A stretch of DNA of 40,891 nucleotides from Actinomycetota bacterium (GTDB lineage Bacteria; Actinomycetota; Acidimicrobiia; Acidimicrobiales; JAHWKP01), in contig JAHWKP010000001.1 in the NCBI GenBank assembly GCA_019347775.1, forward strand, positions 1-40,891, in the 5' to 3' direction. Below are positions 5,337-40,234 of this stretch, piece by piece. Position numbers and translations under genes: made by a program. The notes under the pieces were generated by a model. It did not search any database, was not told the origin of the DNA, and worked only from the letters and a program-made list of their open reading frames with translations. The number at the start of each line of letters is the position of its first letter. The first letter of the stretch is position 1.

Positions 5337-6913
5337 CAGATGGTCACTCCAATGTTGTCTATGAGGCGGGCGCGGCCGAGTCGAGCGGCCACGAGCAGGC
5401 GGACCTCGTCGTGAAGTCGCGCAGGAACAGAAAGGTCGGCCGCGTGGACGGCCACGGCGTAGTCGAGTTCGAAGGCGGGCTCCTGGGAGATGAGGTCGGT
5501 CATAACGCCCGACACCCGAGCGGGGTCTCGTTCACCGTCCGCGATGGCGCCGGCTCCGGCAAGCAGGGCCTGGTGCAGCTTCGGCGCGACCTCGCGTTCT
5601 GCCGCCGAGAGGTAGGCGTTGCGACTCGACATGGCCAGACCGTCCTCCTCGCGGACCGTCGGGCATCCGAGTACGGCGACCGGCAGCGCGAGGTCGGAGG
5701 CGAGCCGCTGGATGACGAGCAGCTGCTGGTAGTCCTTCTCGCCGAAATAGGCCTGGCACTCACCCGCTATTGCGAAGAGCTTGGCGACCACGGTGGCCAC
5801 GCCGTCGAAGTGCCCCGGGCGCGATGCACCGTCGAGGACCTCTCCGACCGCGCCTGCCGCGACAGTCGTCGTCGGGGCGCCCTGCGGCCACATCTCCTCT
5901 TGGGCCGGAACGAACAGGTGGTGGGCCCCGGCCTCCCCCGCGATGCGACGGTCGCGGTCGAGGTCTCTGGGATAGGAGCCGAGGTCCTCCGACGCCGAGA
6001 ACTGCAAGGGGTTGACGAACACCGTCACCGCCACCACGTCACACTCCGCCGCCGCGCGTCGGATGAGACTGGCATGGCCATCGTGCAGATAACCCATGGT
6101 CGGAACGAGGCCAACCTTCCGGCCGGCGCTGCGCTCGGCTTGTAGCGCCTTGCGGAAGCCTTCAACTGATACATGCTCGAGCATGTTCACGTCCGCGCGT
6201 GGGACGTTCGAGCCCGCCAGCAGCACGGCCGAGGCCGACATGGCCTCGTAGGCGGGCCGCTCGGGCTCCGGAAGAGCACTCAGGTGGGCGGCGACGGTGT
6301 CCCAGTCACCACGGCGCACCGGACCGGTCAGAGCAGCGGCGGGACCCAACTCGGCGACGTTCTCGATCGTGGCGCGGACGAGACCGAGGTAGGCCTCGAA
6401 CGGAACTCCAGCGTCAGCCGCAATGCGCTCGACTTGGCCAAGCAGGGCGGCGAGATGACTCGCGGCCACCGTGGCGGCGGCGTGATAGCCCACCCGGCTG
6501 TCGTCGGAGACCTCGAAGGCCTTGCCGCCGAGGTCGTCCACGACCTGGCGGATGAAGGGGTCACCGGCGACTGCGAACCAGGCGCCCCCCGACAAGCGAC
6601 GTGCACCGGTAGCGGGGTCCGGTAGCGACACGAGTGGATGGAGCGCAGCCCGCCTCGGATGAGGCACGAGCACATCGGGACCGACCGAACCCGAGAGATG
6701 GGCGATCACCGCTTGGGCATCCGGTGAAATCCGGGCAGCCACAGCCTCGATGGCGGCGTCCGGCGTGGCGATGACGAGCAGGTCGACGCCAGCCGCAGCC
6801 TTCGAGAGGTCGTCGTCCCGACCGAGCGGAGCGAGCATGACCCATCCCGCTTCCTCGAGGGCCCGGTGCAGAGAGCCGCCGGCGCGGCCATGCCCGATGA
6901 CGCGCGCCGTCAT
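5336..6913 (-). CDS. panC: Fusion protein: N-terminal Rossmann/DUF2520-like putative oxidoreductase domain plus C-terminal pantoate--beta-alanine ligase
   Basis: The ORF track gives 5336..7177, but the first 88 codons are Arg/Pro/Trp-rich junk that runs into folK. ATG at 6913 gives [14 protein letters not shown] (GxGxxG). About 245 aa of Rossmann plus helical domain follow, then PanC with [13 protein letters not shown] and later conserved blocks. Confidence 0.85.
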
Positions 6914-6995: not shown

Positions 6996-7472
6996 CTATA
7001 AGGATAGATCGGTTCGGCGTCGTACCTGGGTGCGGGCCCACTCGGTCTGCTCGACCGGCACCAGGGATGGATCCAGGTCGGCCAGAGGAGCCAGGACGAA
7101 GGCCCGTTCGCCCATCCGTGGGTGCGGCACCTGCAGGTCGGCTTCGTCGACGATGAGGTCGTCGACCAGCAGGACATCCACGTCGAGTGTTCTCGGGCCC
7201 CACCGCTCGCGGCGCACGCGGCCGGCGTCGTCCTCCAGGTTGTGCGCGACCTGGAGAAGTTGGCGGGGAGAAAGCTCGGTGTCGATGGCGACGACGGCGT
7301 TGAGGTAGTCCGGCTGAGGGGGCCCTCCAGCTGGGGCGCTCTCGTATACCGGCGACACCCTCACGACATTCGGCAGTCCGGCTAAGGCGCGTCTGAGATG
7401 AGCCTCCCTGTCGCCCAGGTTTGATCCCAGCCCCAAGTACGCCCTCATAGGTTGCCGGTGCCCGTCACCCAT
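6996..7472 (-). CDS. folK: 2-amino-4-hydroxy-6-hydroxymethyldihydropteridine pyrophosphokinase
   Basis: AYLGLGSNLGDR, PRTLDVDVL and HPRM motifs are present. The start may instead be the internal ATG at 7448. Confidence 0.9.
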   Translation of the reverse strand: MGDGHRQPMRAYLGLGSNLGDREAHLRRALAGLPNVVRVSPVYESAPAGGPPQPDYLNAVVAIDTELSPRQLLQVAHNLEDDAGRVRRERWGPRTLDVDVLLVDDLIVDEADLQVPHPRMGERAFVLAPLADLDPSLVPVEQTEWARTQVRRRTDLSL

Positions 7473-7479
7473 ACGCGCA

Positions 7480-7833
7480 TCAGCGGGTAATGGTCACCCC
7501 GGCGCTGTCGAGGTGTGCGGCCACGGGAGGCCTCAGCTTGCGCAATGACACCGTGACCTTCTCGACGCGGGCGTCGGACTTGGCGACCTCCGCGATGCGT
7601 TCGGCCAGGATCTCGATGAGATCAAACGACTCGCCTTCGATGAGATCGACGATCCGTACCGACAGAGGTCCGTAGTCAATCGTGTCCTCTATGTCGTCGC
7701 TGCGGGCCGCTGCCGACAGATCCAGGTACAGGTCGAGGTCGACCTCGAACGGTTGCGCCGAGTCCTTCTCACCGGGCGCCAACCCATGCTTACCGAGCGC
7801 CCTGAGGCCCCTCAAGTTGATGAGGTCGCTCAC
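7480..7833 (-). CDS. folB: Dihydroneopterin aldolase
   Basis: 117 aa. IxLRGLRALGKHGLxxxEKxxAQPFEVDLDL and TIDYG motifs are present. The GTG start forms a GTGA overlap with the upstream gene's stop. Confidence 0.9.
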   Translation of the reverse strand: MSDLINLRGLRALGKHGLAPGEKDSAQPFEVDLDLYLDLSAAARSDDIEDTIDYGPLSVRIVDLIEGESFDLIEILAERIAEVAKSDARVEKVTVSLRKLRPPVAAHLDSAGVTITR

Positions 7834-8855
7834 TTCGGTTTCTTGGCGGCCTTTTTGACGGCCTTCTTAGCCGTGGCCTTCTTGCCGGCCGTGGCCTTCT
7901 TGCCGGCCGTGCCCTTCTTGCCGGCCGTGCCCTTCTTGGCGGCAGATTTCTTGGTCGCCGTCGCCTTCTTCGCTGAAGTCTTCTTCGCTGGAGCCTTCTT
8001 CGCAGCTTTCTTCTTGCGGGCTGCCGTCTTCTTCGCAGCCAACTTCTTGGCAGCGGCTTTCTTGTTTGCGGCCTCCTTCTTGGCGGCCTCCTTCTTGGCC
8101 GCGATCCGGCCGGCCGCCTTCTTCGCCCGCGCCTGCTTGGCGGCGTTCTTCTTGGCGAGAGCCTTCTTGGCCGCGATCTTGGCGGCCGTCTTGGCGGGAC
8201 GCTTCTTCGCCGCGGCCTTCTTCACCGTCGCCGAACGGGCCTTGGCCTTTTCTCTCAGGGACAGCGGCCGGCGCACCCTGCGCGTCGGGGGAGGCAGCGG
8301 CCCCAGGTCGACCACCGGAGCGTCTACCGGTTCCACCGCAGATCCCTCGACGCGGGCCGCCATTGCGACCAACTCTCTGCCCGGCGATCCCATCTGACGC
8401 GCCAGCAACTGTTCGACGACGTTGATGGCCTGCATGACATTGGGCAGCATCCCGGTCCAGAGCAGATAGCCGCCGATGACTCCCATCACCCGGTCGCTTA
8501 CTTCCTCCTGGTGAATCAGCAGCTTCTCGCCGCGTCCCATCCATTCCTTGAGCTTCGGGTACAGCTCGCCCAGAACGTTGATCGGATCGGCGTGCGGCCC
8601 GAAGGGGACGTGCACGGAGGCGAGCTCATGCTCGGAATAAGCATGGAGATTGTGTGGGGAAGGAAGCAGCGAGACGATCCGGTTGAAGCCCTCCTGCTTT
8701 AGCCAGATGATCTCCTCCATCCGTCGCACCGGTCGGTGGTTGCCGCCGTGCCCACCGGGACGCTCGGCTACTGCGAGCTTCCCCTTGATGACCCAGGCGA
8801 AGTTCCGCGGAATGATGCCCGCCGCCCACTTGCCTCGCATCGGACTGTTCAGCAT
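7830..8855 (-). CDS. PTP/DSP-fold protein lacking the catalytic Cys (HQx5R instead of HCx5R), fused to a ~140-aa Lys/Ala-rich histone-H1-like tail
   Basis: I trimmed ORF 7830..9161 to ATG 8855, which forms an ATGA overlap with the folP stop. Residues 1-170 align by eye with small archaeal/bacterial PTP/DSP domains: NFAWVIKGKLAV; EIIWLKQEGFNRIVSLL; VHVPFGPHADP; LLIHQEEVSDRVMGVIGGYLL. Codons at 8508-8513 read CAC CAG, giving His-Gln. Residues ~201-341 are AAKK/AKKA repeats. Confidence 0.7.
   Translation of the reverse strand: MLNSPMRGKWAAGIIPRNFAWVIKGKLAVAERPGGHGGNHRPVRRMEEIIWLKQEGFNRIVSLLPSPHNLHAYSEHELASVHVPFGPHADPINVLGELYPKLKEWMGRGEKLLIHQEEVSDRVMGVIGGYLLWTGMLPNVMQAINVVEQLLARQMGSPGRELVAMAARVEGSAVEPVDAPVVDLGPLPPPTRRVRRPLSLREKAKARSATVKKAAAKKRPAKTAAKIAAKKALAKKNAAKQARAKKAAGRIAAKKEAAKKEAANKKAAAKKLAAKKTAARKKKAAKKAPAKKTSAKKATATKKSAAKKGTAGKKGTAGKKATAGKKATAKKAVKKAAKKPK
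7871..7942 (-). repeat. Four tandem 18-bp coding repeats (ccgtggccttcttgccgg type) inside the Lys/Ala tail
   Basis: Read directly from the sequence. Units 1 and 2 are identical, unit 3 differs from them at one base, and unit 4 from unit 3 at one more. They encode (T/A)AGKKG/A hexapeptide repeats. Confidence 0.85.
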
Positions 8856-9667
8856 CAGGCCACGGCCTCCTCGACCGGTTCGTCGATGAGCCGCAGCGCC
8901 TGCACCGTCGGCGCAACGTCGTGGACCCTCACCATGCGCGCCCCGCGGAGGACGGACCACACCGCGGTGGCGATGGACCCTTCGAGCCTGTCCTCGGGCC
9001 CCGGTGTATCGCCCCCGCGAGCCGTGACCACTCCGAGGAACCCCTTGCGGCTGGTTCCGACCACGACCGGGCGGCCGAGCGAGACCACTTCGCCGATTCC
9101 CCTGACGAGGGCGAGGTTGTGCTCGGTGGTCTTGCCGAAACCGATCCCGGGATCGAGCCATACCTCTTTCACCCCGGCCGTGTCTGCTCGCTCGGCCCGG
9201 TCCCCGAGGAACGAGACCACCTCCGACACGACGTCGTCGTAGCGCGGCGCGTTCTGCATCGTCTGCGGCTCTCCCTGCATGTGCATTGCCACCCAGCCCA
9301 CTCCTTCTGCTGCGGCTACCGCCGCCAGGGAGGCCGACACGTCGTTCACGAGCGTTGCCCCGGCTGCTATTGCGGCGCGGGCTACATCGGCTGACCGGGT
9401 GTCGATGGAGACCCTCACCTCGCGGGCCAGCGCCTCGACCACCGGCAACGCCCGTCGGATCTGCTCTTCGGCGGGCACCGGTTCGGCCCCGGGGCGGGTG
9501 GATTCGCCTCCCACGTCGACGATGTCGGCTCCTTCGGCTGCCATCTCGAGCCCGTGGTCAATCGCCGAAGTGGCGTCGCTCCAGCGCCCGGCGTCGGAGA
9601 AGGAGTCCGGCGTCACGTTCAATATGCCCATCACGAGGGCGCGTTTCGACGCTTCGGAAACCCGCAT
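8855..9667 (-). CDS. folP: Dihydropteroate synthase
   Basis: 270 aa. MGILNVTPDSFSD, DVGGESTRPG, DPGIGFGK and SRK motifs are present. Confidence 0.93.
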   Translation of the reverse strand: MRVSEASKRALVMGILNVTPDSFSDAGRWSDATSAIDHGLEMAAEGADIVDVGGESTRPGAEPVPAEEQIRRALPVVEALAREVRVSIDTRSADVARAAIAAGATLVNDVSASLAAVAAAEGVGWVAMHMQGEPQTMQNAPRYDDVVSEVVSFLGDRAERADTAGVKEVWLDPGIGFGKTTEHNLALVRGIGEVVSLGRPVVVGTSRKGFLGVVTARGGDTPGPEDRLEGSIATAVWSVLRGARMVRVHDVAPTVQALRLIDEPVEEAVA

Positions 9668-9763: not shown

Positions 9764-10333
9764 TCACCGGCCGTGGATGAAGGCCATGGCCTCGGCCCGG
9801 GTGCGCGAGTCGTCGCGGAACAGGCCCCGCACCGCGGACGTCACCGTGGTCGTGCCCGACTTGCGGACCCCCCGCATCGACATGCACAGGTGCTCGGCTT
9901 CGACCACCACGAGCACTCCCCTCGGCTCAAGATGCTTCTCCAACGCGTCCGCGACCTCCGTGGTGAGGCGCTCCTGAACCTGCGGCCGGCGGGCGTAAAT
10001 GTCGACAAGACGCGCCAGCTTCGACAGCCCGGTGATGCGACCGTCAGCATTCGGGATGTAGGCCACGTGGGCGACTCCGATCCAGGGAGACAGGTGGTGC
10101 TCGCACAGTGACTGCGTCGGGATGTCCTTCACCATCACCATCTCGTCATGGTCGGCGTCGAAGGAGACGTTGAGTATCTCGAGGGGGTCCTGGCCGATCC
10201 CGGCGAAGACCTCGGCGTACATCGCCGCCACCCGCTCGGGCGTCCTTACGAGCCCGTCGCGGAAGGGGTCCTCCCCAATGGCCTCCAGGATCTCGCGGAC
10301 GGCCTTTTCGATCCTCGCCTGGTCTACGGGCAT
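9764..10333 (-). CDS. folE: GTP cyclohydrolase I
   Basis: 189 aa. [18 protein letters not shown] and HLCMSMRGV motifs are present. Confidence 0.95.
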
Positions 10334-10344
10334 AGCGGCAGGAT

Positions 10345-12321
10345 CTAAGCGGTGGCCGGGCCCGTGCGAGGGACCCGCCGGCGAGCCGGCCGTGCCCGCT
10401 TCGAGCCCTTCGCCTCGGCGGCGTCTCGTGAAGAGGCCGCCGCGACCTGGTCCCGTGCCCGGGACCTCGATTTGGCCGGCGCGCGTCCGGGCCGGAGAAC
10501 CGGCGCCGGCGAAGGCCAGGGGTCGAGATGACCTATGACGGCCATGAGATCGGGCGTGTCCAGCGTCTCATGCTCCATCAACGCCGCCGCCAGCTCGTCG
10601 AGGGTCGCCCGATGGGTCGTGAGGATGTCGCGGGCCAGGTCGTGAGCCTCGTCGATCAGGCGGCGGACTTCGCCGTCGATGCTGGTGGCCACTTCGTCTG
10701 AGTAATTGGGCGTGTGGTTGATGTCGCGTCCCAGGAAGACCTCGCCGTCGCGCTGGCCCAGTTGCTGGGGCCCGAGCATGTCGCTCATCCCGTACTCGGT
10801 GACCATGGCCCGGGCGATCCGCGTGGCCTTCTCGATGTCGTCCTGCGCCCCGGTGGTCGGGTCCGCGAAGATCAGCTCCTCCGCGCTGCGGCCGCCGAGG
10901 GCCATGGCGAGTTGATCGGTCAGTTCTGAACGTCGGACCAGGTAACGGTCCTCGGTCGGCAGAGACAGGGTCCAGCCAAGGGCTCGGCCGCGGGAAACGA
11001 TCGACATCTTGTGAATGGGATCGGCGCCGGGAAGCACGTGGCCCACGAGAGCGTGGCCACCCTCGTGGTAGGCGATTACGAGCCTTTCGCGCTCGGACAT
11101 GACCCGGGTGCGTCGCTCCGGGCCGGCCAGCACCCGGTCGATGGCCTCCTCGACCTCACGCATGCCGATCCGGGGACTGTCCTGCCGGGCCGCCAGCAGG
11201 GCCGCCTCGTTCATCAGGTTCGCCAGGTCGGCGCCCGTGAAGCCCGGCGTGCGTCGGGCTACGACGCTCAGGTCGACCGTGGTCCCGAGGGGCTTGTCCT
11301 TGGCATGGACCGCGAGAATCGCCTTCCGGCCCTCGAGGTCGGGGCGGTCGACGACGATCTGGCGGTCGAAGCGGCCGGGGCGTAGCAGTGCCGGGTCGAG
11401 GATGTCGGGTCGGTTGGTGGCCGCGATGAGGATCACGCCCGCCTGGGTCTCGAAGCCGTCCATCTCCACGAGGAGCTGATTGAGCGTCTGCTCCCGCTCG
11501 TCGTGTCCCCCGCCGAGACCCGCGCCGCGGTGGCGACCGACGGCATCGATCTCGTCCATGAAGATGATCGCGGGGGCTGAAGCCTTTGCCTGCTCGAACA
11601 GGTCGCGGACCCGGCTGGCACCGACGCCGACAAACATCTCCACGAAGTCCGACCCGGAGATGGAGAAGAAGGGCACGCCGGCTTCGCCGGCCACTGCCTT
11701 GGCCAGCAGCGTCTTGCCGGTGCCGGGCGGACCGTAGAGAAGAACGCCCTTCGGCACTTTGGCGCCGATGGCGCTGAAGCGCTCGGGCGCGGCCAGGTAG
11801 TCCTTGATCTCCTGCAGTTCGGCGACCGCTTCGTCAGCGCCCGCGACGTCGGCGAAAGTGGTCTTGGGCTGATCTTTGGACATGGTGCGGGCCTTGGCCT
11901 TGCCGAACTGCATGACCCGGTTGCCGCCACCTTGCATCGAATTGATGACGAAAAGGAAAATTCCGAGGATCAGCAGGATCGGCAGCAGGTTGATCAGCAG
12001 GGAGACGAGCACATTGCCGCCCTCGGGCCGGGATTCCACTTCCACACCGGCGTCGAGGAGCTTGGTGGTGACCTCGTCCGCGTATTCGGCCGGGTAGTGG
12101 ACCTCGTATTCCGCGCCGGGAACGGTCTTGCCCGTGACCAGACCGTCTCCGTCGACGATCTCGGCAGTTGCGATCTGCTTGTCGGCCAGAAGCCGGTTGA
12201 ACTGGTCAAGCGAGAAGCGCTCGGGCTCGTCACCGCCGCCGAGGAAGCCGGCGCCGAGCACGAAGACGACGGCCGCCACCCCGAGCAAGATGCCGAGCTT
12301 TCGCTTATCTAGGCGGTGCAT
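10345..12321 (-). CDS. ftsH: ATP-dependent zinc metalloprotease FtsH
   Basis: 658 aa. Has two N-terminal TM segments, an AAA+ Walker A (GPPGTGKT), Walker B (IIFMDEID), the second region of homology, and the HEGGHA zinc site. Confidence 0.97.
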
Positions 12322-12374: not shown

Positions 12375-12932
12375 CTATTCGTTGCCGTCGGCGAATTCAG
12401 CTACGTATGGCAGGTTCCTGAATCGCTCATCGAAGTCGAGTCCGTAGCCGACGACGAAGCGGGGCGGAATTCTGAAACCTACGTATCGAAGGTCGGGATC
12501 GCCCTTCTGCAGGCCCTCCTTCACGAGCAGGGCGCAGACCTCGAGACTGGCCGGTTGCCGTGCCGCGAGCGTTCGCCGTAGGTAAGAGAGGGTGAGTCCG
12601 GAATCGACGATGTCCTCTACCACGAGAACGTGCCGGTTGGTCAGGTCGACATCGAGATCCTTGACGATGCGGACGACTCCACTGGTCTTGGTCGCGCTGC
12701 CGTATGACGCCACCGCCATGAAGTCGAACTCCACTGGCAGCCGGATAGCTCGCGCGAGGTCGGCCATGAAGATGAATGCCCCCTTGAGGACACCGATCAG
12801 CAACGGCGGGCGGTCGGCATAATCCGCGGTGATGCGATCGCCCAGCTCGGCGACCTTGGCCGCAAGCTGCTCTTCGGTTACGACGATCTCACCTATGCGC
12901 GGGTCGTCGCCCAGTCCCTGCGCTACCCGCAC
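12375..12932 (-). CDS. hpt: Hypoxanthine phosphoribosyltransferase
   Basis: The C-terminal ~185 aa of ORF 12375..13328 carry the PRPP-binding loop [14 protein letters not shown] and [11 protein letters not shown]. The upstream part overlaps tilS in another frame. The GTG at 12932 lies 10 nt after the tilS TAA stop. Confidence 0.88.
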
Positions 12933-12942
12933 GGGGCGCAGG

Positions 12943-13809
12943 TTAGGCGCGGGCCACCGACAGACGGCCCCGGCTGCGCTCGACGCGCACACCTTCGGCG
13001 ACCTCGGTGGCCACGGCTTCTCCCCGGGCGACTGCGAGGACCCGCTCGACTGAGGCCGCCGACGGTGGATGCCCGCCCAGGTGCGGACGCAGCCAACGTC
13101 GCAGGGCGCGGCGGGCGAAAGGCACAGGCGCCCCCGCCACCGCGGCGGCATCGGTCGGGTCGATGTCGGCCGACAACGCGTCCAGCAGGTCGGCATCGTC
13201 GGCGAGCAATCCCGCTTGGCGGGCCAGCACCGCGGACACGTCACGACCGGCAAGCGCATCGAGAAGAGGGAGCACCGAGTGGCGTACGGCGTTGCGCAAC
13301 AGGTTCTGGTCCTCGTTGCTCGGATCAACCACCGGCTCCAGCCCTTCGTCGGCGCAGATCTTGTGCGTCTCGACGCGGCGCAATCCCAGGATCGGGTGGT
13401 TCGGACCGGGCCTCATGCCGGCCAGCCCGTCCAGCCCTGATCCCCGCAGAAGGTTCAACACGACGGTTTCGGCTTGATCGTCGGCCGTGTGGCCGGTGGC
13501 CGCTCCCTCGGGAAGCACAGCCCGGCGAGCGGCCCGCGCCCGAGCCTCCAGGTTCGGACCCGGCACCACTGGGGTCTGCACACCCTCGAATCGGGCGCCG
13601 TAGCGGCGAGCCGCGTCCCGTACGACTTCGGCCTCGGCGGCCGACCCCTCGCGTAAGCCGTGGTCGACATGCCAGGCCGTCACTTCGCACCCCGCAACCA
13701 CGGCCAGAACCAGCAGCGCCAGCGAGTCGGCGCCGCCGGATACGGCGCAGTCGAGCCGGGTGCCCGCCGGAGGAAACGTGCAGCGGTCGAGCAACTCGGT
13801 CAAAGGCAC
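12943..13809 (-). CDS. tilS: tRNA(Ile)-lysidine synthase (short form)
   Basis: Has the PP-loop SGGADS motif ([12 protein letters not shown]). The position upstream of hpt/ftsH is the conserved actinobacterial arrangement. At 288 aa, it lacks the long C-terminal domain of the E. coli type. Confidence 0.85.
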
Positions 13810-13819
13810 CGAGGTTGGA

Positions 13820-14911
13820 TCAGAAGTTCGAGGCCAGCGCCGGGGGTGGAGTGCCGACGCGTCTCAGCCAGGCTGCCGGGTCGGCAATTTCGGCCTTGGT
13901 CGGCAGGTACTCGGGACCCTGCCAAGCCACATCGATGGCGCGCTCCCCCGCGGTCTCCTCGACCCCGGCGATGAAACGCTCACCCGCCTCGTACTGGCGC
14001 ATCTTGGCCTCCAGCCCGAGCAGCTTCTGGAGCACCTTGGCGGCCGGACCGGCCGACGCACGGCGGGCGTGGAGCACCGCCGAGAAGCGCTCGGCGTTCG
14101 GGACCCGGTCCTTGGCGGCACGATCCATGATCACGTCTCCGTGGCCCTCGAGCAGGCTCATCATCGCCCCGAGCGACTCGAGGCTCTCGCGCTGTGCGGG
14201 CGTGGCGAAGACCGCGGCCAAGCCACCGTCATCTAGTGGGTTGCGCCCGTCGCGCACCTCGTCAATCGAGCGCCTGATCACTGCCATGAGATGGGCGGGG
14301 TCGACCCGCAGCGACCCGACCACCCCATCGACCAGGCCCACGAAGTGGTGCCGCAGCCAGGGCACTCCGGTGAACTGGGCGCGATGAGTGAGCTCATGGA
14401 GGGCGATCCAGAGGCGGAACTCGGCGGGCGGGAATCCGAAACGGCGTTCCAGGGCGGCGATGTTGGGGCCGACGTAATAGACCAGATCTTGGTCGTCGGG
14501 ATCCTCGTCCTCGGTCAGCAGCAGGTCGTACTGGCCCAGCACCCGGGTCGACATCCAGCCCAACAGGGCTCCGAGTTCAGCCGCGGTCACCTTGCCCAGC
14601 ACCGGCGCCAGGGGGTTGCGTACGCCCTTGTCCGATCCGAGCCGGCCCAGGACCGGCCCTAGGAGCCGCTTGAAGGTCGCAACGTTGGCGCGGGCCCAGG
14701 CGTCACGGTCGACCACCCGGGCCCGGGCCGCGCCGGTGGTGGATCGCAGGCCGGTCTCGGCCGCAACCAATTCCTCGGCCTCGACCGTCGCGGCCATGAG
14801 ATCGGCCTCGAGCGCGGCTCGATCGTAGGGACCGGGAGGCGAAAGTCTGCCGGCGAGGCCGCCCGCGACCTTGGCCGCCAGTGCCCAATCGACCGCGTCG
14901 TGGAGGCTCAT
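13820..14911 (-). CDS. Zinc-dependent metalloprotease, DUF2342 family
   Basis: 363 aa with an HEXXH motif (ALHELTHRAQF). Composition and length are like the actinobacterial DUF2342/TIGR03624-type hydrolases found next to tilS. The family assignment is from memory. Confidence 0.72.
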   Translation of the reverse strand: MSLHDAVDWALAAKVAGGLAGRLSPPGPYDRAALEADLMAATVEAEELVAAETGLRSTTGAARARVVDRDAWARANVATFKRLLGPVLGRLGSDKGVRNPLAPVLGKVTAAELGALLGWMSTRVLGQYDLLLTEDEDPDDQDLVYYVGPNIAALERRFGFPPAEFRLWIALHELTHRAQFTGVPWLRHHFVGLVDGVVGSLRVDPAHLMAVIRRSIDEVRDGRNPLDDGGLAAVFATPAQRESLESLGAMMSLLEGHGDVIMDRAAKDRVPNAERFSAVLHARRASAGPAAKVLQKLLGLEAKMRQYEAGERFIAGVEETAGERAIDVAWQGPEYLPTKAEIADPAAWLRRVGTPPPALASNF

Positions 14912-15116: not shown

Positions 15117-15377
15117 TCAGGTCAGGCCAAGCGCGCTGGCGATGCGCTCCCTTAGTCCCGGCGGAACCGATTCACAGCAGGAGCGAGACACGAGAGCCTT
15201 CAACTCCGCTTCGAATCCAAAAGCGTGGTCGCACGGCTGGCAGTCGGCGAGGTGGCGGCTGATTTCCACGCGCACCTCCTGGGTCACCTCACCGTCGAGG
15301 TAGGTGTAGATGTGCATCAGAGCCTCTCGGCACTTGCCGATTGTCGCTGGCCCGATGGAGTTCTCTGATTCAGTCAT
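15117..15377 (-). CDS. rsrA: Zinc-binding anti-sigma factor (ZAS family, RsrA/RshA-like)
   Basis: 86 aa. Has the HxxxCxxC motif (HLADCQPC) plus an upstream Cys and a C-terminal CC. Its start forms an ATGA overlap with the sigH stop. Confidence 0.85.
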
Positions 15378-15997
15378 GCCGCTCCGCCATTTCGGTCCCC
15401 ACTGCCCTTCGTGGCGGGGGCGGGAGCCCCATCACCACGATCTACGAGCCCTCGTTGCTTTCCAAACTCGAACAACGCCTTCTGCAGCGCCTTTCTTCCC
15501 CGGTGGATCCTGCTCATGACGGTACCGATCGGCACCTCCATGATGTCGGCAATCTCCTGGTAGCTGAAGCCCTCGACGTCAGCTAGCAGTACCGCTATGC
15601 GGAACTGGTCGGGCAGCTCCTCGACAGCCCTCTTGACCTCCGCCTCGGTGATGTGCTCCATCACCAGGTCCTCCGGGCTCCGCCCCGTGGGCGCGGTCGA
15701 TTCGCCGCCGAGTCGGCGGTACAGGTAGAGGTCCTCCACGTCTTCGACGTCGGACTCCTGGGGGCGGCGTTTCTTGGCCCGATAGATGTTGATGAAGGTG
15801 TTGGTGAGGATGCGATAGAGCCACGCCCTCAGGTTCGTCCCCTCGGTGAAGCTGCCGAACCCGCGGTAGGCCCGCAGATAGGTCTCCTGCACCAGGTCCT
15901 CGGCATCCGCGGGCTTCCGGGTCATGCGCAGGGCGGCTCCGTAGAGGGCCGGCATGTGCTCCATCGCCATCTCTGCGAACTTCGCCTGGTCGGCCAC
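15374..15997 (-). CDS. sigH: ECF sigma factor, SigH/SigR-like
   Basis: [30 protein letters not shown] is region 2 and [12 protein letters not shown] follows. Region 4 is [27 protein letters not shown]. The GTG at 15997 is the only start that keeps the conserved KFxE helix. An alternative ATG lies at 15970. Confidence 0.9.
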
Positions 15998-19251: not shown

Positions 19252-22023
19252 CTACGCGGGCGGCGGTGGCTGCTCGGGGTCCGGGCCGTTCTCGGCCGCC
19301 GACTTCTTGGCCGAGGCCGTCTTCGCCGCTGCCTTCTTCTTAGCCGGCGCCTTCTTGGGGCTGGCGGCCTTCTTCTTGGTGGCCTTCTTGGATGCTGCCT
19401 TCTTCTTGGTCGCCTTCTTCTTCTTCGACGGGCCAGCGGCGCGACGGTCGGCCAGCAATTCGGCGGCCCGCTCGATGGTTATCGATTCGACCTTGTCGCC
19501 GGTGCGCAGCGAGGCGTTGGTCTCGCCATCAGTGACGTAGGGGCCGAAGCGACCGTCCTTGACCACCACCGGGCTTCCGGTGGCCGGGTCTTCACCCAAC
19601 TCCTTGAGGGGCGCCGCGGCCGCGCCACGGCCTCTGCGCTTGGGTTGGGCCAGGACGCTCAGGGCTTCGTCCTGGGAGATAGAGAAGAGCTGTTCCTCGG
19701 ACTCGAGCGACCGGGTTTCCTTGCCACTCTTGATGTAGGGCCCGTAGCGGCCATTGGCGGCCACGATCTCTTCGCCAGTCGCCGGATCGGCCCCGACCGT
19801 GCGGGGCAGCGTCAGCAACCGGAGGGCGGTGTCGAGATCTATGCCTTCCACCGACATCGTCTTGAACAGCGAAGCGGTTTTGGGTTTGTCGCCACCGTCG
19901 ACTGCCTCGCCCAACTGGACGTACGGACCGAAACGCCCGTTACGGGCCAGTACAGGAAGCCCCGTTTCGGGATCGTTGCCCAGCACCCGCTCCTCGGAAC
20001 CGGTTTCGAGGATCTGCACCGCTCGTTCGACGGTCAGTTCGTCCGGCGCGAGGTCCTCGGGGATCGACGCTCGGTCTTCGCCGCGCTGGACGTAGGGCCC
20101 GTACTTGCCCACTCGGATGATTACCGGCTCGCCGTTTTCGTCGGCGCCGAGCGGGATGGAGTTCACCTCGCGGGCGTCGATCTCGTCGAGGCGCTGGCTC
20201 ACCGCCGCCTTGAGTCCGAGCTTGCCGTCGGCGTCGGAGCCGTTCGCCTCGCCGAAATAGAAACGGGTGAGATACGGAATGGCCTCCTGATCACCGGTGG
20301 CGATGTCGTCGAGGGTGTCCTCCATCGAAGCCGTGAAGCCGTAGTCGACCAGGTTGGCGAAGTGGTGCTCCAGCAGCCCGATCACCGAGAACGCGGTGAA
20401 TGAGGGAACCAGGGCGGAGCCCTTCTTCCAGACGTAGCCCCGGTCTTGAATAGTGCCGATGATGGAGGCATAGGTCGACGGCCGTCCGACCCCCAGCTCC
20501 TCCAGAGCCTTCACCAGGGACGCCTCGGTGTAACGCGCCGGGGGTTGGGTCTCGTGCCCCGCCGGTTCGAGCGACTCAGCCGCAACCCGGTCACCCTCGG
20601 AAAGAGGTGGCAGCCGGACTTCCTGGTCGCCGAGCTCGGAGGAGGGGTCGTCGGAGCCCTCGACATAAGCCCGGAGGAAACCCGGGAAGGAGATGACCCG
20701 TCCGTTGGAGGCGAACTCGGTCTCCCGGCCCGACGCCGAGACCGCTCCGAGGCGCACCGCGACGGACTGTCCCCGGGCATCGGCCATCTGGGACGCGACC
20801 GTCCTCTTCCAGACCAGCTCATAGAGCCGGGCTTCATCGGGGCCCACCTCCCGGGCGACAGCGTCGGGAAGCCGGAAGTCGTCGCCCGCGGGACGGATGG
20901 CCTCGTGAGCCTCCTGGGCGTTCTTCACCTTCTTCTCGTAGCGGCGGGGCTTGTCGGGCACGTAGTCCTCTCCGTAGAGAGAGGTCGCCTGGCGACGGGC
21001 CGCCGACAGCGCCGTGTCCGAAAGCGTGGTGGAGTCCGTACGCATATACGTGATGTATCCGGCTTCGTAGAGCCGCTGGGCGACCTGCATGGTGCGTTGC
21101 GATCCGAAGCGCAGCTTGCGGCCGGCCTCCTGTTGCAGCGTCGACGTCATGAACGGCGCTGCCGGCTTGCGGGCCCACGGCTTCTCCTCGACCGATTTGA
21201 CCGAGAACGACGAGTCGGCCAGATCGCCGGCCAGTTCACGGGCGCCCCGCTCGTCGAGCACGACCACGTCTTCGCGCTTGAGCGCTCCGAGTTCGTCGAA
21301 GTCGCGGCCCGTGGCGAGCCGCTCACCGTCGACCGACACCAAAGTGCCCTTGAAGGTGGGATTGTCAACCGAGTCGGCGATAGCCCTGAAAGCTCCCTCG
21401 ATATCCCACCATCCGGCAGAGCGGAAGCGCATCCGCTCCCGTTCGCGCTCCACCACCAAGCGGGTGGCGACGCTCTGCACCCGTCCGGCCGACAGCTTCG
21501 GTGCGACCTTGCGCCACAGGACTGGAGAGACCTCGTAGCCGTAGAGACGGTCGAGTATCCGCCGAGCTTCCTGGGCATCGACGAGGCGCCGGTCGAGGTC
21601 TCTCGACTCGTCGATGGCGCGCTCGATGGCAGCGCGGGTGATCTCGTGGAACACCATCCGTTTGACCGGCACAGTCGGGCTCAACACCTCGAGCAGGTGC
21701 CACGCGATCGATTCGCCCTCACGGTCTTCGTCGGTTGCCAGATAGATCTCGCTGGCGTCCTTCATTAGCGACTTGAGCTTCTTCACCTGGTCGCGCTTTT
21801 TGGCACTGACGATGTAGATCGGCTTGAAGTCGTTGTCGACATCAACGGCGAGTCCGGACTTCGCCCATGGCTCACTCTTGTAGGCGGCGGGCACCTCGGA
21901 AGCTCCGCGGGGCAGGTCACGCACGTGGCCAAAGGAGGACTCGACGACGTAATCGGATCCGAGAAAGCCCGCGATGGTGCGCGCCTTCGCGGGCGACTCG
22001 ACGATTACGAGGGGCTTGGCCAT
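19252..22023 (-). CDS. topA: DNA topoisomerase I with Lys-rich C-terminal tail
   Basis: ATG at 22023 gives MAKPLVIVESPAKARTI (Toprim). Also present are DEDREGE and the active-site region GYITYMRTDS. The C-terminus has repeated GRFGPYV modules and a KKKKATKKKAASKK tail. The 51 codons upstream in the track are Arg-rich junk. Confidence 0.96.
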   Translation of the reverse strand: MAKPLVIVESPAKARTIAGFLGSDYVVESSFGHVRDLPRGASEVPAAYKSEPWAKSGLAVDVDNDFKPIYIVSAKKRDQVKKLKSLMKDASEIYLATDEDREGESIAWHLLEVLSPTVPVKRMVFHEITRAAIERAIDESRDLDRRLVDAQEARRILDRLYGYEVSPVLWRKVAPKLSAGRVQSVATRLVVERERERMRFRSAGWWDIEGAFRAIADSVDNPTFKGTLVSVDGERLATGRDFDELGALKREDVVVLDERGARELAGDLADSSFSVKSVEEKPWARKPAAPFMTSTLQQEAGRKLRFGSQRTMQVAQRLYEAGYITYMRTDSTTLSDTALSAARRQATSLYGEDYVPDKPRRYEKKVKNAQEAHEAIRPAGDDFRLPDAVAREVGPDEARLYELVWKRTVASQMADARGQSVAVRLGAVSASGRETEFASNGRVISFPGFLRAYVEGSDDPSSELGDQEVRLPPLSEGDRVAAESLEPAGHETQPPARYTEASLVKALEELGVGRPSTYASIIGTIQDRGYVWKKGSALVPSFTAFSVIGLLEHHFANLVDYGFTASMEDTLDDIATGDQEAIPYLTRFYFGEANGSDADGKLGLKAAVSQRLDEIDAREVNSIPLGADENGEPVIIRVGKYGPYVQRGEDRASIPEDLAPDELTVERAVQILETGSEERVLGNDPETGLPVLARNGRFGPYVQLGEAVDGGDKPKTASLFKTMSVEGIDLDTALRLLTLPRTVGADPATGEEIVAANGRYGPYIKSGKETRSLESEEQLFSISQDEALSVLAQPKRRGRGAAAAPLKELGEDPATGSPVVVKDGRFGPYVTDGETNASLRTGDKVESITIERAAELLADRRAAGPSKKKKATKKKAASKKATKKKAASPKKAPAKKKAAAKTASAKKSAAENGPDPEQPPPPA

Positions 22024-22082
22024 TGGGGCGACAGAGTGAGCGCTTAAGTACGGCCGTGTCAAGCGGGCCGCTCGGCGTGGAG

Positions 22083-22709
22083 CTAGGCGCGCTGCCTGCG
22101 GCGATGGGCCAGCCACTCGTGGCCGACGGGGATCAGCGATACGAAAATGACGACGGCGACCATGGGTAGCAACCACTTTTCGGCGTCGGGAATCGTTTCG
22201 CCGACGAGGTAGCCGAGCAGTGTGACGCCGACTGCCCAGAGCAACGCGCCCAGCACGTTGAACACGACAAATGTGCGATACGGCATCTGGGCCGCGCCGG
22301 CGACGATGGGAGCGAAAGTACGGACAATCGGCACGAAACGGGCGATGACGATGGTCTTCGATCCGTGATGCTCGAAATACGACTTCGCCCGGTCGAGGTG
22401 CTGGCGCTTGAACAATCGGGAGTCGGGACGGCGGAAGAGCGGGGGCCCGGTGATCCGACCGAATGAATAGCCGACCTGGTCGCCTGCCACGGCGGCGACG
22501 AATAGACCGACGAGAAGGAATGGCAACGGGAGAGTGAGCACACCCTGTGAAGTCAGCAGCCCCGCGACGAAGAGAAGCGAGTCGCCTGGCAGGAAGAACC
22601 CGAAGAACAAACCGGACTCGGCAAAGACGATGAGGAAGAGGCCGATGATCCCGAAAGCCTCGATCAACCCCCTCGGCTCCGGCAACGGAATCCCAAGCAG
22701 GGCGAGCAC
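22083..22709 (-). CDS. dedA: DedA/SNARE-associated family membrane protein
   Basis: FAESGLFFGFFLPGDSLLF and FVPIVRTFAP motifs are present. The start is trimmed to GTG 22709 (or TTG 22715), just after the hppA stop at 22717-22719. Confidence 0.8.
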   Translation of the reverse strand: MLALLGIPLPEPRGLIEAFGIIGLFLIVFAESGLFFGFFLPGDSLLFVAGLLTSQGVLTLPLPFLLVGLFVAAVAGDQVGYSFGRITGPPLFRRPDSRLFKRQHLDRAKSYFEHHGSKTIVIARFVPIVRTFAPIVAGAAQMPYRTFVVFNVLGALLWAVGVTLLGYLVGETIPDAEKWLLPMVAVVIFVSLIPVGHEWLAHRRRQRA

Positions 22710-22716
22710 GCTCAAC

Positions 22717-25064
<2,348 letters not shown>

Positions 25065-25068
<4 letters not shown>

Positions 25069-25811
25069 GCTCTTGTTCTCTCTTTCTTGTGGGTTCTCTT
25101 GCTCTTTTGGTCTGCGTCAGGCTCGGAACTCTTCGGCTCCGGCCGTACGAAGATCTGGCGGGCGATCTTTTCGCCCACGGTGCGGTCCTTGCCGTCGACG
25201 CTGACGACAACGGGCCCGTCGAACGGGTGCTTTTCTCGGATCTCGATCCGCACGCCGGGGCGAAGACCGAGGGTCGCGAGGAATTCAACTACGTCCGCGT
25301 CGGTCGAGCCCGGAACGGCGACCGTGGCAACGTCGCCTGCCTCTAGGTCGTACAGCGGCGGCATCTCCGGCAGATCGGCGAGTTCAGCGGTTGGAATCGG
25401 GAAGCCGTGGGGGCACGTCGCGGGCCGGTCGAGAGCCACGAACATACGGTCCTCCACCTCCTGAGGCAGGTCGTGCTCGAAACTCCCGGCCAGGCGGTCA
25501 GCCTCGTTCCAGGCGTAACCGAGCATGTCGGAGAGGAACCTCTCCACGATGCGGTGCCTACGGATGGCCGAGATCGCGGCCCGCCGGCCCTCGACCGTCA
25601 GTTCCACGCCACGGTAGGGGCGGTGCACTGCCAGATCCCGGTCGGCCAGGCGCTTGACCGTGGCGGTGACTGTGCCGGGACTGACGCCTAGCGCCTCGGC
25701 CAGATCACCGGTGTGGATCGCTGGGGCTTCGGCCACGGGCGCGGCGCGACTGAGCCGGTACATCGACTTGAGCGTCTCGCGCTCTGAACGGGTGAGTTCG
25801 GCTAGCTGCAT
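25065..25811 (-). CDS. DtxR/IdeR/MntR-family metal-dependent transcriptional regulator with a C-terminal FeoA/SH3-like domain and a short basic tail
   Basis: Has a winged HTH (LAEALGVSPGTVTATVKRLADRDL), the dimerisation/metal region RHRIVERFL and CPHG, and a C-terminal beta domain. Its stop forms an ATGA overlap with the hppA start. Confidence 0.85.
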
Positions 25812-29639: not shown

Positions 29640-30065
29640 CTATTCCTCGGCGGGCCCGCAGTACATGACGAGGGTCACGACGGTGCCCTCGGCGGAGGGT
29701 TTGAAGTCGACTTCGTCGACCAGAGACCGGATCAGCGGGATCCCGAGCCCCCGCTCGAAGTTCAGACGCTCCGGGTCGGTCACCGGCGGGTGTTGCGGAA
29801 TGCTCGACGGGTCGAACCCGGGACCTCGATCGTTTACCGACACTTCGAGGCGATCATCGCCCTCGGCCCAGCGCACGATCACGCGGTCGGAAGTCGCCTT
29901 ACCGACATGGGCATCGATGGCGTTGGTGCAAGCCTCTGATACCGCGAGCTTCAGGTCGTCCACTCGATCGTCGGCGAGTTCCCGGCGGGTGGTCGCGAGG
30001 GACGAGACGAAAAGCCGGACGAGGCCGACGAATTCGGGCTCCGCCGGTATCTCCAACTCCACCAT
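29640..30065 (-). CDS. rsbW: Anti-sigma factor / serine kinase, RsbW/SpoIIAB-like (HATPase_c)
   Basis: 141 aa. Has an N-box (SEACTNAIDH), a G1 box (NDRGPGFD) and a G2 box (RGLGIPLI). Confidence 0.85.
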   Translation of the reverse strand: MVELEIPAEPEFVGLVRLFVSSLATTRRELADDRVDDLKLAVSEACTNAIDAHVGKATSDRVIVRWAEGDDRLEVSVNDRGPGFDPSSIPQHPPVTDPERLNFERGLGIPLIRSLVDEVDFKPSAEGTVVTLVMYCGPAEE

Positions 30066-30099
30066 CGGGGCGCCGTCTCCGGGAATTGGGTGCCTCCGC

Positions 30100-30435
30100 C
30101 TAACTGGCGGTGGCTGCGTCCACGCTGTCGTGGATCGAAAAGACCTTGGTCAATCCTGTGATCTCGAACACCTTCAGGATCCGCGACTGCGTCGAGACGA
30201 GCGACATCTCACCGTCGTTACTGCGAAGGCGCTTCAGCCCGCCGACCAGGACGCCCAGCCCGGTGGAATCGAGAAAGTCGACTCCTTCGAGGTCCACGAC
30301 AATGTTGCGCTTGCCCTCGGTCACGAGCTCCACAAGACGCTCCCGAAGCCGGGGCGCGGTGTAGACGTCGACCTCGCCTTTGACGGCCAGCACTGTGTGG
30401 CCGTTGCGCTCCTCTACTTCAAGGCCCAGGTCCAA
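30100..30435 (-). CDS. rsbV: STAS-domain anti-sigma-factor antagonist, RsbV/SpoIIAA-like
   Basis: 111 aa. [12 protein letters not shown] contains the phosphorylatable Ser context. Confidence 0.88.
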
Positions 30436-38516: not shown

Positions 38517-39428
38517 ATGTCGCCCGCCCCAACCCGGATCGCTGCGTTTTTCGATCTCGACAAGACCGTTATCGCCAAGGCTTCCATGGCGGCCTTCGGT
38601 GGGACGCTGTATCGGGATGGTCTCCTCAGCCGGCGCATACTCCTTCGCGCCGCCTGGTCCCAACTGGTCTTCCTGCACCTCGGAGCGAGTGAGGAAAAAC
38701 TCGTCCAGATCAGGGAGAAGGTCCTCCGTCTGACCAAAGGCTGGGACCGGTCGCGGGTGCGGGCGCTGGTCCGAGAGGCGATGGACGAAGTCGTCGAGCC
38801 GATCATCTACGCCGAGGCACTCGAGTTGATCGAGTACCACCGAGCCGAAGGCCACCGCCTGGTGATCGTGTCGGCCTCCCCAGTAGAGATCGTCGAGCCC
38901 CTTGCCGACTACCTCGACATCTCCGACGCCATCGCCAGCGTGGCGCGGGTCGATGAGAACGGGCTCTACACGGGCGAGATGGAGCGCTACTCCTACGGGC
39001 CCTACAAGGCCGAGGCCATGAACGAGTTGGCCGAGCGTTATGGGTTGGATCTGTCGGAGTCCTACGCCTATTCGGACTCGGCCACCGACCTGCCCATGCT
39101 CGAGGCGGTAGGGCACCCCGTCGCCGTGAATCCCGACAAGGTGCTGGCCCGCCTGGCCGCTGACCGGGGCTGGGAGGTCCGCCACTTCGTGCGACCGGTG
39201 CGGCTGCGAGACCGGGTTCCGGTGCCGCCACCAGTGCCCACCGCGGCCATAGGGCTCGCCGCGGCTGCGGCCGGCACGGCCATCGCCATCCTGCGAAGCC
39301 GACGTCGGCGGCCGCTTCCGCCGCCGAAGAGGACCGCCATGCTCGCCGCCCAGGCTGCCGCGGCCGCCGCCGCGATCAAGCCAGTTCTGAGGCGATCACG
39401 GCAAGCGCCCCCATCACGGAGACGCTGA
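38517..39428 (+). CDS. HAD-superfamily subfamily IB hydrolase (SerB-like) with a C-terminal hydrophobic/basic extension
   Basis: Has motif I AAFFDLDKTVI (DxDxT), motif II LVIVSASP and motif IV AYSDSATDLPML. The C-terminal ~70 aa contain a hydrophobic stretch and Arg/Pro-rich tails. Confidence 0.85.
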   Translation: MSPAPTRIAAFFDLDKTVIAKASMAAFGGTLYRDGLLSRRILLRAAWSQLVFLHLGASEEKLVQIREKVLRLTKGWDRSRVRALVREAMDEVVEPIIYAEALELIEYHRAEGHRLVIVSASPVEIVEPLADYLDISDAIASVARVDENGLYTGEMERYSYGPYKAEAMNELAERYGLDLSESYAYSDSATDLPMLEAVGHPVAVNPDKVLARLAADRGWEVRHFVRPVRLRDRVPVPPPVPTAAIGLAAAAAGTAIAILRSRRRRPLPPPKRTAMLAAQAAAAAAAIKPVLRRSRQAPPSRRR

Positions 39429-40092
39429 GCACCGCAGCCTTTGTGCGACCGGCGTCGAGGTGGGCAGCGAGGCCTCGCGACGCCCAGAATCCGAGCAGCA
39501 CCGGCGGCTGGATCAGAAGCGCCAGTCCGAGCTCCGCAGCGCCGAGGTTTCCCACAACTGCGAGCGCCGCGATCGAGATCAGTCCGCCGATGACGAAGAT
39601 CACCGACAAGGTGCCGCGGATGACGGGACCGCGCTGGCTGGCGTAGACCACGGCCAGCGGTGGGCCACCGATCGACGACACGGTCCCTGAGAACCCCGAT
39701 ACCAGTCCCGCTCCGACGAGCGTCGTCGGCGTGGGCCGCAGCCCGAGATTGACCAGGTTCAGCCCAACCGCCAGCAGCACCGCCAATCCGACGGCGATCG
39801 CGATGCCACTGGTCGAGATCGAGGCGACGAGCAGGGCTCCGAGCACCGTTCCCGGGAGCCTCCCGTACATGACCCAGCGCATGCCGCTCCAGTCGACATG
39901 AGCACGGTCACGCCGGGCGATGAGAACGGTGAGGGCCACCGCAGCCAAGAGCAGTGGGCCGGGCACCAGCCGAGGTTCGACCAGCGCGACGAGTGGCGCG
40001 GCGAGCAGGTTCATCCCGAAGCCGAGTCCGCCTTGCACCGCCGCCGCGCCTCCGAGCACGACAAACACGACGGCGTACTGCAGTGGACTCAC
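39376..40092 (-). CDS. TauE/SafE-family anion exporter
   Basis: 238 aa with 7-8 TM segments. The N-terminus VVLGGAAAVQGGLGFGMNLLAAPL and the internal repeat SGFSGTVSSIGGPPLAV are typical of the family. Confidence 0.82.
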   Translation of the reverse strand: MSPLQYAVVFVVLGGAAAVQGGLGFGMNLLAAPLVALVEPRLVPGPLLLAAVALTVLIARRDRAHVDWSGMRWVMYGRLPGTVLGALLVASISTSGIAIAVGLAVLLAVGLNLVNLGLRPTPTTLVGAGLVSGFSGTVSSIGGPPLAVVYASQRGPVIRGTLSVIFVIGGLISIAALAVVGNLGAAELGLALLIQPPVLLGFWASRGLAAHLDAGRTKAAVLSVSVMGALAVIASELA

Positions 40093-40141: not shown

Positions 40142-40234
40142 GGAGGTGTCAGCTGACCTGGTGGCAGCCCCCGCCTTCAAAGCGGGTGGGACGGGCGATC
40201 CCCGTCCGGCGGGTTCGATTCCCGTCCACCTCCG
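40142..40234 (+). tRNA. selC: tRNA-Sec (anticodon TCA)
   Basis: 93 nt. The acceptor is GGAGGTG(T)/(C)CACCTCC and the anticodon loop CTTCAAA matches E. coli selC. It has a long variable arm (GGACGGG-CGATC-CCCGTCC), a T arm GCGGG-TTCGATT-CCCGT and discriminator G. The 8th acceptor pair is a T:C mismatch. No CCA is encoded. Confidence 0.8.

Follow-up and report, generated by a model that had tools for sequence, protein, structure and literature searches.

What is the gene that separates folP from folB in the folate operon of an actinobacterial contig, and what might a protein with the fold of a phosphatase but without its catalytic cysteine do there? We address this question for contig JAHWKP010000001.1, of which the 40,891 nucleotides analysed here form the window, and for its gene X (7830..8855, minus strand), which lies downstream of folP, for dihydropteroate synthase, and upstream of folB, for dihydroneopterin aldolase. 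In most bacteria the gene for the pyrophosphatase acting on 7,8-dihydroneopterin triphosphate (DHNTP) is unknown and the final phosphatase is described as 'non-specific' (PMC1971073), and in Lactococcus lactis folQ was identified from the gene clustering in folKEPQC (PMC1971073). We find that X is a selected, functional, non-thiol derivative of a DUSP23-like phosphatase, and we tentatively suggest that, as a module of the pseudophosphatase type, it would bind an anionic ligand, which is probably a phosphorylated pterin. We favour this reading while placing it somewhat below an even chance.

The descent of X can be read from its core domain (residues 1-176; 8328..8855, minus strand), which a first-pass annotation made from the letters of the window had likened, over its N-terminal ~170 aa, to the small Cys-based phosphatase fold, naming beforehand a structural match as the check on that claim. 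Pfam and NCBIfam gave no match for residues 1-190, and no model of the protein tyrosine phosphatase (PTP) or dual-specificity phosphatase (DSP) type was reached. A phmmer search of PDB sequences matched a single entry, 25xa (E 1.5e-7), a Cys-containing dual specificity phosphatase family protein from Ca. Chlorohelix, in an alignment that pairs LIHCRAGYGRTG with LIHQEEVSDRVMG; the X family profile found the same entry at E 3e-9, and hhalign aligned the family with an alignment of 23 Cys-containing DSPs (Cys-DSPs) over 128 columns at 97.8% probability (E 9e-13). An AlphaFold2 model of the core, built from a 30-sequence alignment (predicted local distance difference test, pLDDT, 89; predicted TM-score, pTM, 0.85), found its best Foldseek match in DUSP23/VHZ (2img/4erc; E 8e-8, TM-scores 0.71/0.83), with Cdc14, baculovirus RNA 5'-phosphatase (BVP), KAP, Tk-PTP, Siw14, PFA-DSP1 and PTEN among the further top matches. 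The structural match sought was thus found, with phmmer and hhalign pointing to the same fold, and residues 1-176 of X are homologous to DUSP23-type dual-specificity phosphatases. X shares fold and sequence homology with DUSP23/VHZ and with the prokaryotic 'DUSP23' proteins of Chloroflexota and Thaumarchaeota (25xa, 2img, 4erc), and the two groups have in common an N-terminal P-x-N-F-x-W-V...KLA motif, a PGG turn, the His before the nucleophile position and, in the window's lineage, the P-loop Arg. They differ in that X lacks the Cys, the loop Gly, the Ser/Thr after the Arg and the canonical Asp, and has an Arg-rich HRxVRR insertion; whereas the Cys-containing relatives match 5-8 Pfam PTP/DSP models, X matches none.

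The residues missing from X are those on which thiol catalysis depends in its relatives. The P-loop remnant H115-Q-E-E-V-S-D-R122 (8490..8513, minus strand) replaces H-C-x-x-G-x-x-R and aligns to HCRAGYGR of 25xa, with the nucleophile Cys and the loop Gly gone, as the first-pass annotation had recognised in placing the codons CAC CAG, which encode His115-Gln116, at 8508-8513. In the alignments with Cys-DSPs, H115-Q116 falls on H-C, E117-E118-V119-S120-D121 on the x-x-G-x-x of the P-loop and R122 on the P-loop Arg, while the Val that follows (motif H-Q-E-E-V-S-D-R-V) occupies the Ser/Thr position. The D-loop remnant H82-V-P-F-G-P-H-A-D-P91 (8583..8612, minus strand), placed by hhalign column mapping, is unconserved family-wide; the column of the canonical general-acid Asp is Pro87 in X, and D90, three residues past that position, is 38% conserved across the family. 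The earlier claim that the Arg and a candidate general-acid Asp remain is therefore right only in part, since Arg122 is present in the window and in 152/170 X loci but is kept by just 46% of a divergent set of 39, made up of the window and 38 full-length representatives (33-79% identity to the window), being replaced in 54% of the divergent full-length representatives, and the candidate Asp is not the canonical one.

These losses extend across the family. Position 115 is His in 170/170 X loci; position 116 is Gln in 144 of them, so that the Gln proposed for the Cys position does predominate, but in the rest it is one of ten other residues (R, A, H, G, E, M, N, D, S or K) and it is never Cys. 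P-loop variants such as HRRRRTDL, HKDDVDDD and HREVIDDS occur among family members. Orthologues with a normal HCx5R, which the first-pass annotation had named as the sign of a decayed copy, were absent from all 270 X family proteins and all 170 loci, and because His115 is universal, Cys never stands at position 116 and HCx5R is nowhere found, the window copy is not a decayed allele. Because X has neither HCx5R nor the general acid, it is best classed as a phosphatase-fold (pseudophosphatase-like) protein and not as a phosphatase.

The most-conserved element of X is a new Arg/Gly-rich insertion, and the old active site is not conserved. This family signature, E31-R-P-G-G...H40-R-x-V-R-R-x-E-E48 (8712..8765, minus strand), is a Gly/Arg-rich strand-loop-helix (ERPGG-x4-HRxVRRxEE) that was absent from the first-pass annotation, and within it HRxVRR (HRPVRR in the window) forms a 6-residue insertion relative to Cys-DSPs in the alignments. 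Across the 39 divergent sequences P16, G34, G35, R44 and E48 are 100% conserved, E31, R41, W21, W51 and Y73 97%, R45, N69, H115 and D/E121 95%, E148 92% and E47 90%, and positions 116-120 are free to vary. In the AlphaFold2 model the signature segment runs from strand beta2 through a Gly-rich loop into the N-terminal part of helix alpha1 and bears three Arg; loops that bind anions or phosphate are generally built in this way. The remaining conserved blocks follow strands beta3, beta4 and beta5, among them the loop S62-L-L-P-S-P-H-N-L-H-A-Y73 (8637..8672, minus strand) after strand beta3, which is invariant in Acidimicrobiales orthologues; judged from topology rather than from model coordinates, the conserved blocks would lie on the active-site face of the fold. 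In an alignment of 74 species-level Acidimicrobiales orthologues linked to fol genes, 48 columns reach at least 95% conservation, the conserved polar residues numbering nine Arg/Lys, nine Asp/Glu and six His. By mean pairwise distance (0.39-0.42), X is as divergent as FolP and FolK and less so than FolB.

A search of 5.8 billion proteins returned 2083 clusters homologous to X, nearly all of 165-180 aa and from Acidimicrobiales or Acidimicrobiia metagenome-assembled genomes, and at least 460 species-level genomes carry a relative. The family is narrow, since an exhaustive representative search collected just 541 clusters at 50% identity. Cluster counts are inflated by frameshift artefacts (P0137, P0159, P0183, P0202, P0216, P0239, P0241 and L045), and FolP-X, TilS-X and other apparent 'fusion' representatives proved to be frameshifted translations of high-G+C or long-read contigs. 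We likewise rejected locus L045 (3000-7000) as a case of fol decay around an intact X: there ftsH, folP and folB are all broken into pieces in different frames, and because ftsH is fragmented too, the damage is an assembly error. All public names of X homologues are 'hypothetical protein', and literature searches on phosphatase-fold proteins in folate synthesis, on bacterial pseudophosphatases and on folate auxotrophy in Acidimicrobiia yielded nothing that bears on the family. The earlier impression that X belongs to no described family stands, given a domain without a Pfam or NCBIfam match and homologues that are uniformly unnamed, and X represents a new form of the PTP/DSP superfamily, one that does without the Cys and has no Pfam or NCBIfam model of its own.

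X has a PTP fold in which the nucleophile is replaced and which selection maintains in its orthologues, and in these respects it resembles the pseudophosphatases STYX, the MTMR pseudo-members and LSF1-type proteins, each a conserved orthologous family with the same fold and a substituted nucleophile. Those proteins act in eukaryotic signalling or as scaffolds and usually keep the phosphate-binding Arg. X is unlike the STYX type in that it is bacterial, is encoded in a cofactor-biosynthesis operon, can dispense with the Arg family-wide and has a new motif as its core. By analogy with pseudophosphatases, X would work by binding and not by thiol catalysis.

The ligand is suggested by genomic context. 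In the window X is followed, on the same strand, by folB (7480..7833; Pfam FolB 8.4e-31; NCBI MBW3536146.1) and folK (6996..7472; Pfam HPPK 4e-41) and preceded by folP (8855..9667; Pfam Pterin_bind 6.6e-77; NCBI MBW3536148.1), folE for GTP cyclohydrolase I (9764..10333; Pfam 2.9e-76) and, upstream of folE, ftsH (10345-12321). The claim that X is locked into the folate operon holds well beyond this contig: the order folE-folP-X-folB-folK recurs in ~72/80 species-level loci. An independent set of 80 metagenome loci, from a scan seeded with an X from a clade without neighbouring fol genes (described below; closest members at most 63% identity), comprised 64 folP-X-folB loci, 13 X-folB loci with a contig end upstream and three flagged by the classifier, of which two were overlap artefacts and one lay on a contig too short for a folB call. 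In all, about 150 of 160 loci have X between folP and folB. Absence of X from the fol operons of relatives, proposed earlier as a check on the association, was thus not what we saw in either set. Divergent members (~30-40% identity) still have X before folB or folK, and individual arrangements read tilS-hpt-folE-folP-X-folB-folK (P0148), folP-X-folB (P0136), X-folB (P0204 and P0160), tilS-hpt-X-folB-folK::panC (P0197) and tilS-?-X-folK-panC (P0270); a search with P0197 for its own relatives retrieved P0197 alone. In one divergent lineage (L084/L085, 5327-6004) a 225-aa protein without a Pfam match lies between tilS and X, overlaps X by 4 nt and takes the place of hpt or folP.

The junction between folP and X is the tightest of the operon, with a 4-nt overlap (ATGA/GTGA) in 60/74 loci (81%), compared with 41-49% at folB/folK, 15-22% at X/folB and 6-7% at folE/folP. 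The window itself departs from this pattern: the ATGA overlap reported there by the first-pass annotation reads TGATG instead (8853..8857, minus strand), a single shared base between the folP stop (TGA, 8857-8855) and the X start (ATG, 8855-8853), whereas the 4-nt GTGA overlap of the X stop with the folB start (7830..7833, minus strand) is as reported. Because of the probable co-translation with FolP and the position before FolB, a phosphorylated pterin is the probable ligand.

These observations suggest the following course of events. X descends from DUSP23-like dual-specificity phosphatases by a dismantling of the thiol machinery in which Cys gave way to Gln, the loop Gly and Ser/Thr were lost and Pro came to stand in the column of the general-acid Asp, while the ERPGG-x4-HRxVRRxEE insertion, which to judge from topology lies on the side of the sheet that carries the former P-loop, has become the invariant core. 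We infer that X, probably made in translational coupling with FolP, acts as a binder of an anionic phosphorylated ligand or partner and not as a Cys phosphatase. The most plausible ligands would be the dihydroneopterin tri- or monophosphate that derives from FolE, or the hydroxymethyl-dihydropterin pyrophosphate passed from FolK to FolP, and the candidate roles of X are to bind such a pterin, to hand it over or also to hydrolyse it.

Several findings weigh against this assignment to the pterin branch. The cluster Zincin_2-tilS-hpt-ftsH-folEPBK-panCD-nadBC-coaX-lysS is conserved by descent and functionally mixed, and because the whole of it is conserved in this way and is heterogeneous, the adjacency of X to fol genes is weaker evidence than gene neighbourhood usually provides. 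Five Acidimicrobiia loci (L026, L044, L051, L057 and L067, on contigs JAYVGK010000427, JANMEI010000359, JAYUDQ010000652, CAVXQD010000007 and JAYSSR010000009, respectively; X at about 6001-6500 in most) have X directly before panC, with no folE, folP, folB or folK at the locus, and an independent divergent lineage (P0217/L167; X at 6001-6558 of L167) shows the same X-panC arrangement with the fol genes absent at the locus. Upstream of X lies ftsH in four of these six loci (L044, L051, L057 and L067), with an alpha/beta-hydrolase gene between the two in L057. The X proteins of the five Acidimicrobiia loci form one clade of 64-87% mutual identity, which implies long retention; they keep every conserved polar residue and differ at the 48 conserved columns by conservative hydrophobic swaps only, and X has therefore been kept by selection where its neighbouring fol genes are gone. 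Such retention sits uneasily with a function in the pterin branch alone. In the scan of 80 metagenome loci for further contexts of this kind, almost all loci were ordinary folP-X-folB or cut by a contig end. The pocket residues, moreover, change between lineages from acidic (HQEELGDR) to basic (HRRRRTDL), and mirror-tree comparisons of X with FolE, FolP, FolB, FolK and FtsH gave no robust partner signal: the strongest correlation of X distances is with FolE (r 0.64-0.68) and the weakest with FolP, and the bootstrap ranges overlap the FtsH control, FolB and FolK. The phosphorylated-pterin hypothesis of the first-pass annotation is plausible but weakened by the retention of X without fol genes and by the descent of the cluster as a whole.

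The same findings lend themselves to a folate-independent housekeeping role, for example as a regulatory or nucleic-acid- or nucleotide-binding pseudophosphatase inserted once into an ancient cluster, which we regard as the strongest of the alternatives although a doubtful one. In two separate lineages X persists before panC although folE/folP and folB/folK have gone from the locus, with full conservation of its polar residues as measured in the five Acidimicrobiia loci, and the genes around it (tilS, hpt, ftsH, fol, pan, nad, coaX and lysS) serve no single pathway. Such a role would also suit the Arg-rich invariant motif, the median core isoelectric point (pI) of 8.8 and the recurrence of basic disordered tails in several branches (P0122, P0127, P0129, P0130, P0133, P0136, L024, L047 and L048). 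Yet no junction in the operon is tighter than that with folP, where a 4-nt overlap is conserved; X stays with folB and folK where ftsH, folE and folP are absent; tails are missing in most members and acidic in others; and the fol genes absent at the locus may lie elsewhere in those genomes.

An enzymatic role within folate synthesis appears unlikely. X would then be a non-thiol, metal- or acid/base-assisted PTP-fold phosphohydrolase that removes pyrophosphate and/or phosphate from DHNTP before FolB acts, an analogue of the Nudix enzyme FolQ/NudB and of the unassigned 'non-specific phosphatase'. In favour of this proposal, X lies directly upstream of folB in nearly all loci and in divergent lineages, evolves at a rate resembling that of the pathway enzymes and retains many conserved polar residues in Acidimicrobiales, no Nudix gene was found in the 40-kb window, and the fold includes enzymes of tri- and pyrophosphates (BVP, Siw14 and PFA-DSP) that were among the top Foldseek matches. 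X shares its fold with BVP, PIR1/DUSP11, Siw14 and PFA-DSP, which handle polyphosphate chains, but all of these use the HCx5R Cys that X does not have. X has no equivalent of the nucleophile and position 116 is variable; E117, E118 and R122 are unconserved in divergent orthologues of the same context, the His residues are not family-wide, and X is retained at loci without fol genes. We know of no precedent for Cys-independent hydrolysis in the PTP fold. Like FolQ/NudB and the HD-domain FolQ2 candidates, X belongs to an operon beside pterin-branch genes; unlike them, it has an unrelated DSP fold that lacks the Nudix box, matching no Nudix model in Pfam or NCBIfam and no HD model in Pfam, and, unlike FolQ/NudB, it persists at loci without fol genes and its DHNTP hydrolysis is putative. 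Slightly less likely still is the most specific form of the proposal, in which X would be the first PTP-fold enzyme to hydrolyse a phosphate anhydride or ester without a Cys and would convert DHNTP to dihydroneopterin in Acidimicrobiia-type Actinomycetota, using the Gly/Arg loop together with pocket carboxylates and His and a metal or activated water.

In the window the core is followed by a Pro/Arg-rich linker defined by composition (residues 177-205; 8241..8327, minus strand; pLDDT 57-78) and by a Lys/Ala polycationic tail (residues 206-341; 7833..8240, minus strand) with 49 Lys and 49 Ala in 136 residues (36% each; pI 12), which short tandem repeats in the DNA encode; part of it, the GTAGKK repeats, comes from an 18-nt tandem repeat of 4.1 copies (7870..7943; Tandem Repeats Finder score 127, 96% matches). 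AlphaFold2 predicts one long helix over residues 200-284, then disorder, with pLDDT below 50 at 287-335. The tail led the first-pass annotation to describe it as histone-H1-like, and a mainly nucleoid-associated, H1-like DNA-binding role for X would draw on the Lys/Ala content, the predicted helix, weak matches to H1-like and HC2 models and the presence in the window of a DNA topoisomerase I with a similarly Lys-rich C-terminus. The repetitive Lys/Ala composition is real, but the similarity to H1 and HC2 is compositional only, every model match falling far below its cut-off (PF07382, HC2, 19.1 against 40 bits; NF038053, 26.2 against 80; NF038052, 10.7 against 135). The tail shares composition and AKKA-type repeats with the tails of actinobacterial HupB/Hlp and TopA, chlamydial Hc2 and Burkholderia H1-like proteins, and it differs from these in being fused to a phosphatase-fold domain and in not being conserved within its own family. 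P0001-3 and P0122, which are closely related to the window, have such a tail, whereas most orthologues are ~175 aa long and tail-less, as are most of the more than 2000 clusters at 165-180 aa; independent basic tails occur in a few other branches (P0127, P0129, P0130, P0133, P0136, L024, L047 and L048), and there are also members whose tails are acidic or rich in Pro. As an appendage that is specific to lineages and evolves fast, the tail is not the function of the family; confined as it is to few branches, it is at most a lineage-specific modifier, and because most orthologues lack a tail and some tails are acidic, a nucleoid-associated role cannot be the family function. We accordingly regard it as very improbable that X is mainly such a factor. 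As a lineage add-on, the 136-aa tail would tether X to polyanions such as DNA or RNA. The DNA topoisomerase I gene (19252-22176, minus strand) encodes Toprim and Topoisom_bac domains, four C-terminal repeats and a Lys-rich tail (…SKKKKATKKKAASKKATKKKAASP), and since TopA and X both carry such a tail, at least two proteins of the organism have polycationic tails.

Two further proposals can be set aside with more assurance. That X is a metal-binding accessory protein or metallochaperone for the Zn-dependent FolE is very improbable: six His and many carboxylates are invariant in Acidimicrobiales, and the best mirror-tree correlation is with FolE, but the His residues are unconserved in divergent members, the bootstrap ranges of that correlation overlap those for FtsH, FolB and FolK, and folE is absent from several X loci. 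Conservation refutes the reading of X as a pseudogene, as a decayed copy or as a mis-called open reading frame (ORF), which has next to no probability, for although the catalytic residues are missing and the exact X protein, with three start choices, had no match in a 15-billion-protein collection that contains FolP, FolE and FolB of the same contig, the frame is intact, the G+C content at third codon positions (0.80 in the core domain, 0.86 in the tail) is coding and similar to that of neighbouring genes, and the orthologues in hundreds of genomes share 48 near-invariant columns, none with the Cys.

The coding sequence of X is complete, with 341 codons and a TGA stop (ATG at 8855, TGA at 7832-7830, minus strand; ORF and translation MLNSPMRGKW...AAKKPK*). 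An AFLAA-rich plus-strand ORF of 214 aa (7753-8397) is not a gene but the shadow of the Lys/Ala tail, and poses a risk of mis-calling. No riboswitch or other RNA element was found in the fol operon, the RNA genes of the window being two tRNAs only. On the same strand, 3' of folK, lie a DUF2520::panC fusion, panD, nadB, nadC, coaX and lysS. The fusion (5336-~6900, minus strand) is an unusual one that joins a Rossmann-like DUF2520 domain to PanC, and a divergent relative has a FolK::PanC fusion (L081, 7015-8325); each of the two forms a physical bridge between the folate genes and the pantothenate genes of the cluster. Upstream, the hpt ORF (12375-13820, minus strand) encodes 317 aa with a phosphoribosyltransferase domain from residue 153 only, and no tilS (ATP_bind_3) lies between Zincin_2 (13820-14911) and hpt; the order in relatives is Zincin_2-tilS-hpt, and here tilS may have been lost or cut short. 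Elsewhere in the window, a gene for a DtxR/IdeR-type metal regulator with a FeoA domain is followed directly, with an overlap, by one for a membrane H+-pyrophosphatase (22717-25811, minus strand), and an anti-sigma-factor-type kinase (HATPase_c_2) is paired with a STAS-domain antagonist (29640-30435, minus strand). There are also an extracytoplasmic function (ECF) sigma gene (15374-15997), a sigma-70 fragment (40337-40816) and a selenocysteine tRNA (40142-40233, plus strand; Rfam tRNA-Sec, 68 bits) that adjoins genes for a TauE/SafE exporter (39376-40092) and a haloacid dehalogenase (HAD) hydrolase (38517-39428).

No part of bacterial folate synthesis is assigned less well than the step that leads from GTP cyclohydrolase I to dihydroneopterin aldolase, and X offers a concrete candidate for that step: a conserved, unannotated phosphatase-fold gene placed right before folB in hundreds of species. 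Were X to prove a Cys-independent hydrolase of DHNTP or of dihydroneopterin monophosphate, this would be the most interesting outcome. The family has lost the Cys, the Gly, the Asp and often the Arg of its ancestors' active site, yet it evolves as slowly as the pathway enzymes and has gained a new, invariant Arg-rich motif. X is thus a clean case of the neofunctionalisation of a 'dead' phosphatase scaffold, and its family merits an annotation model of its own.

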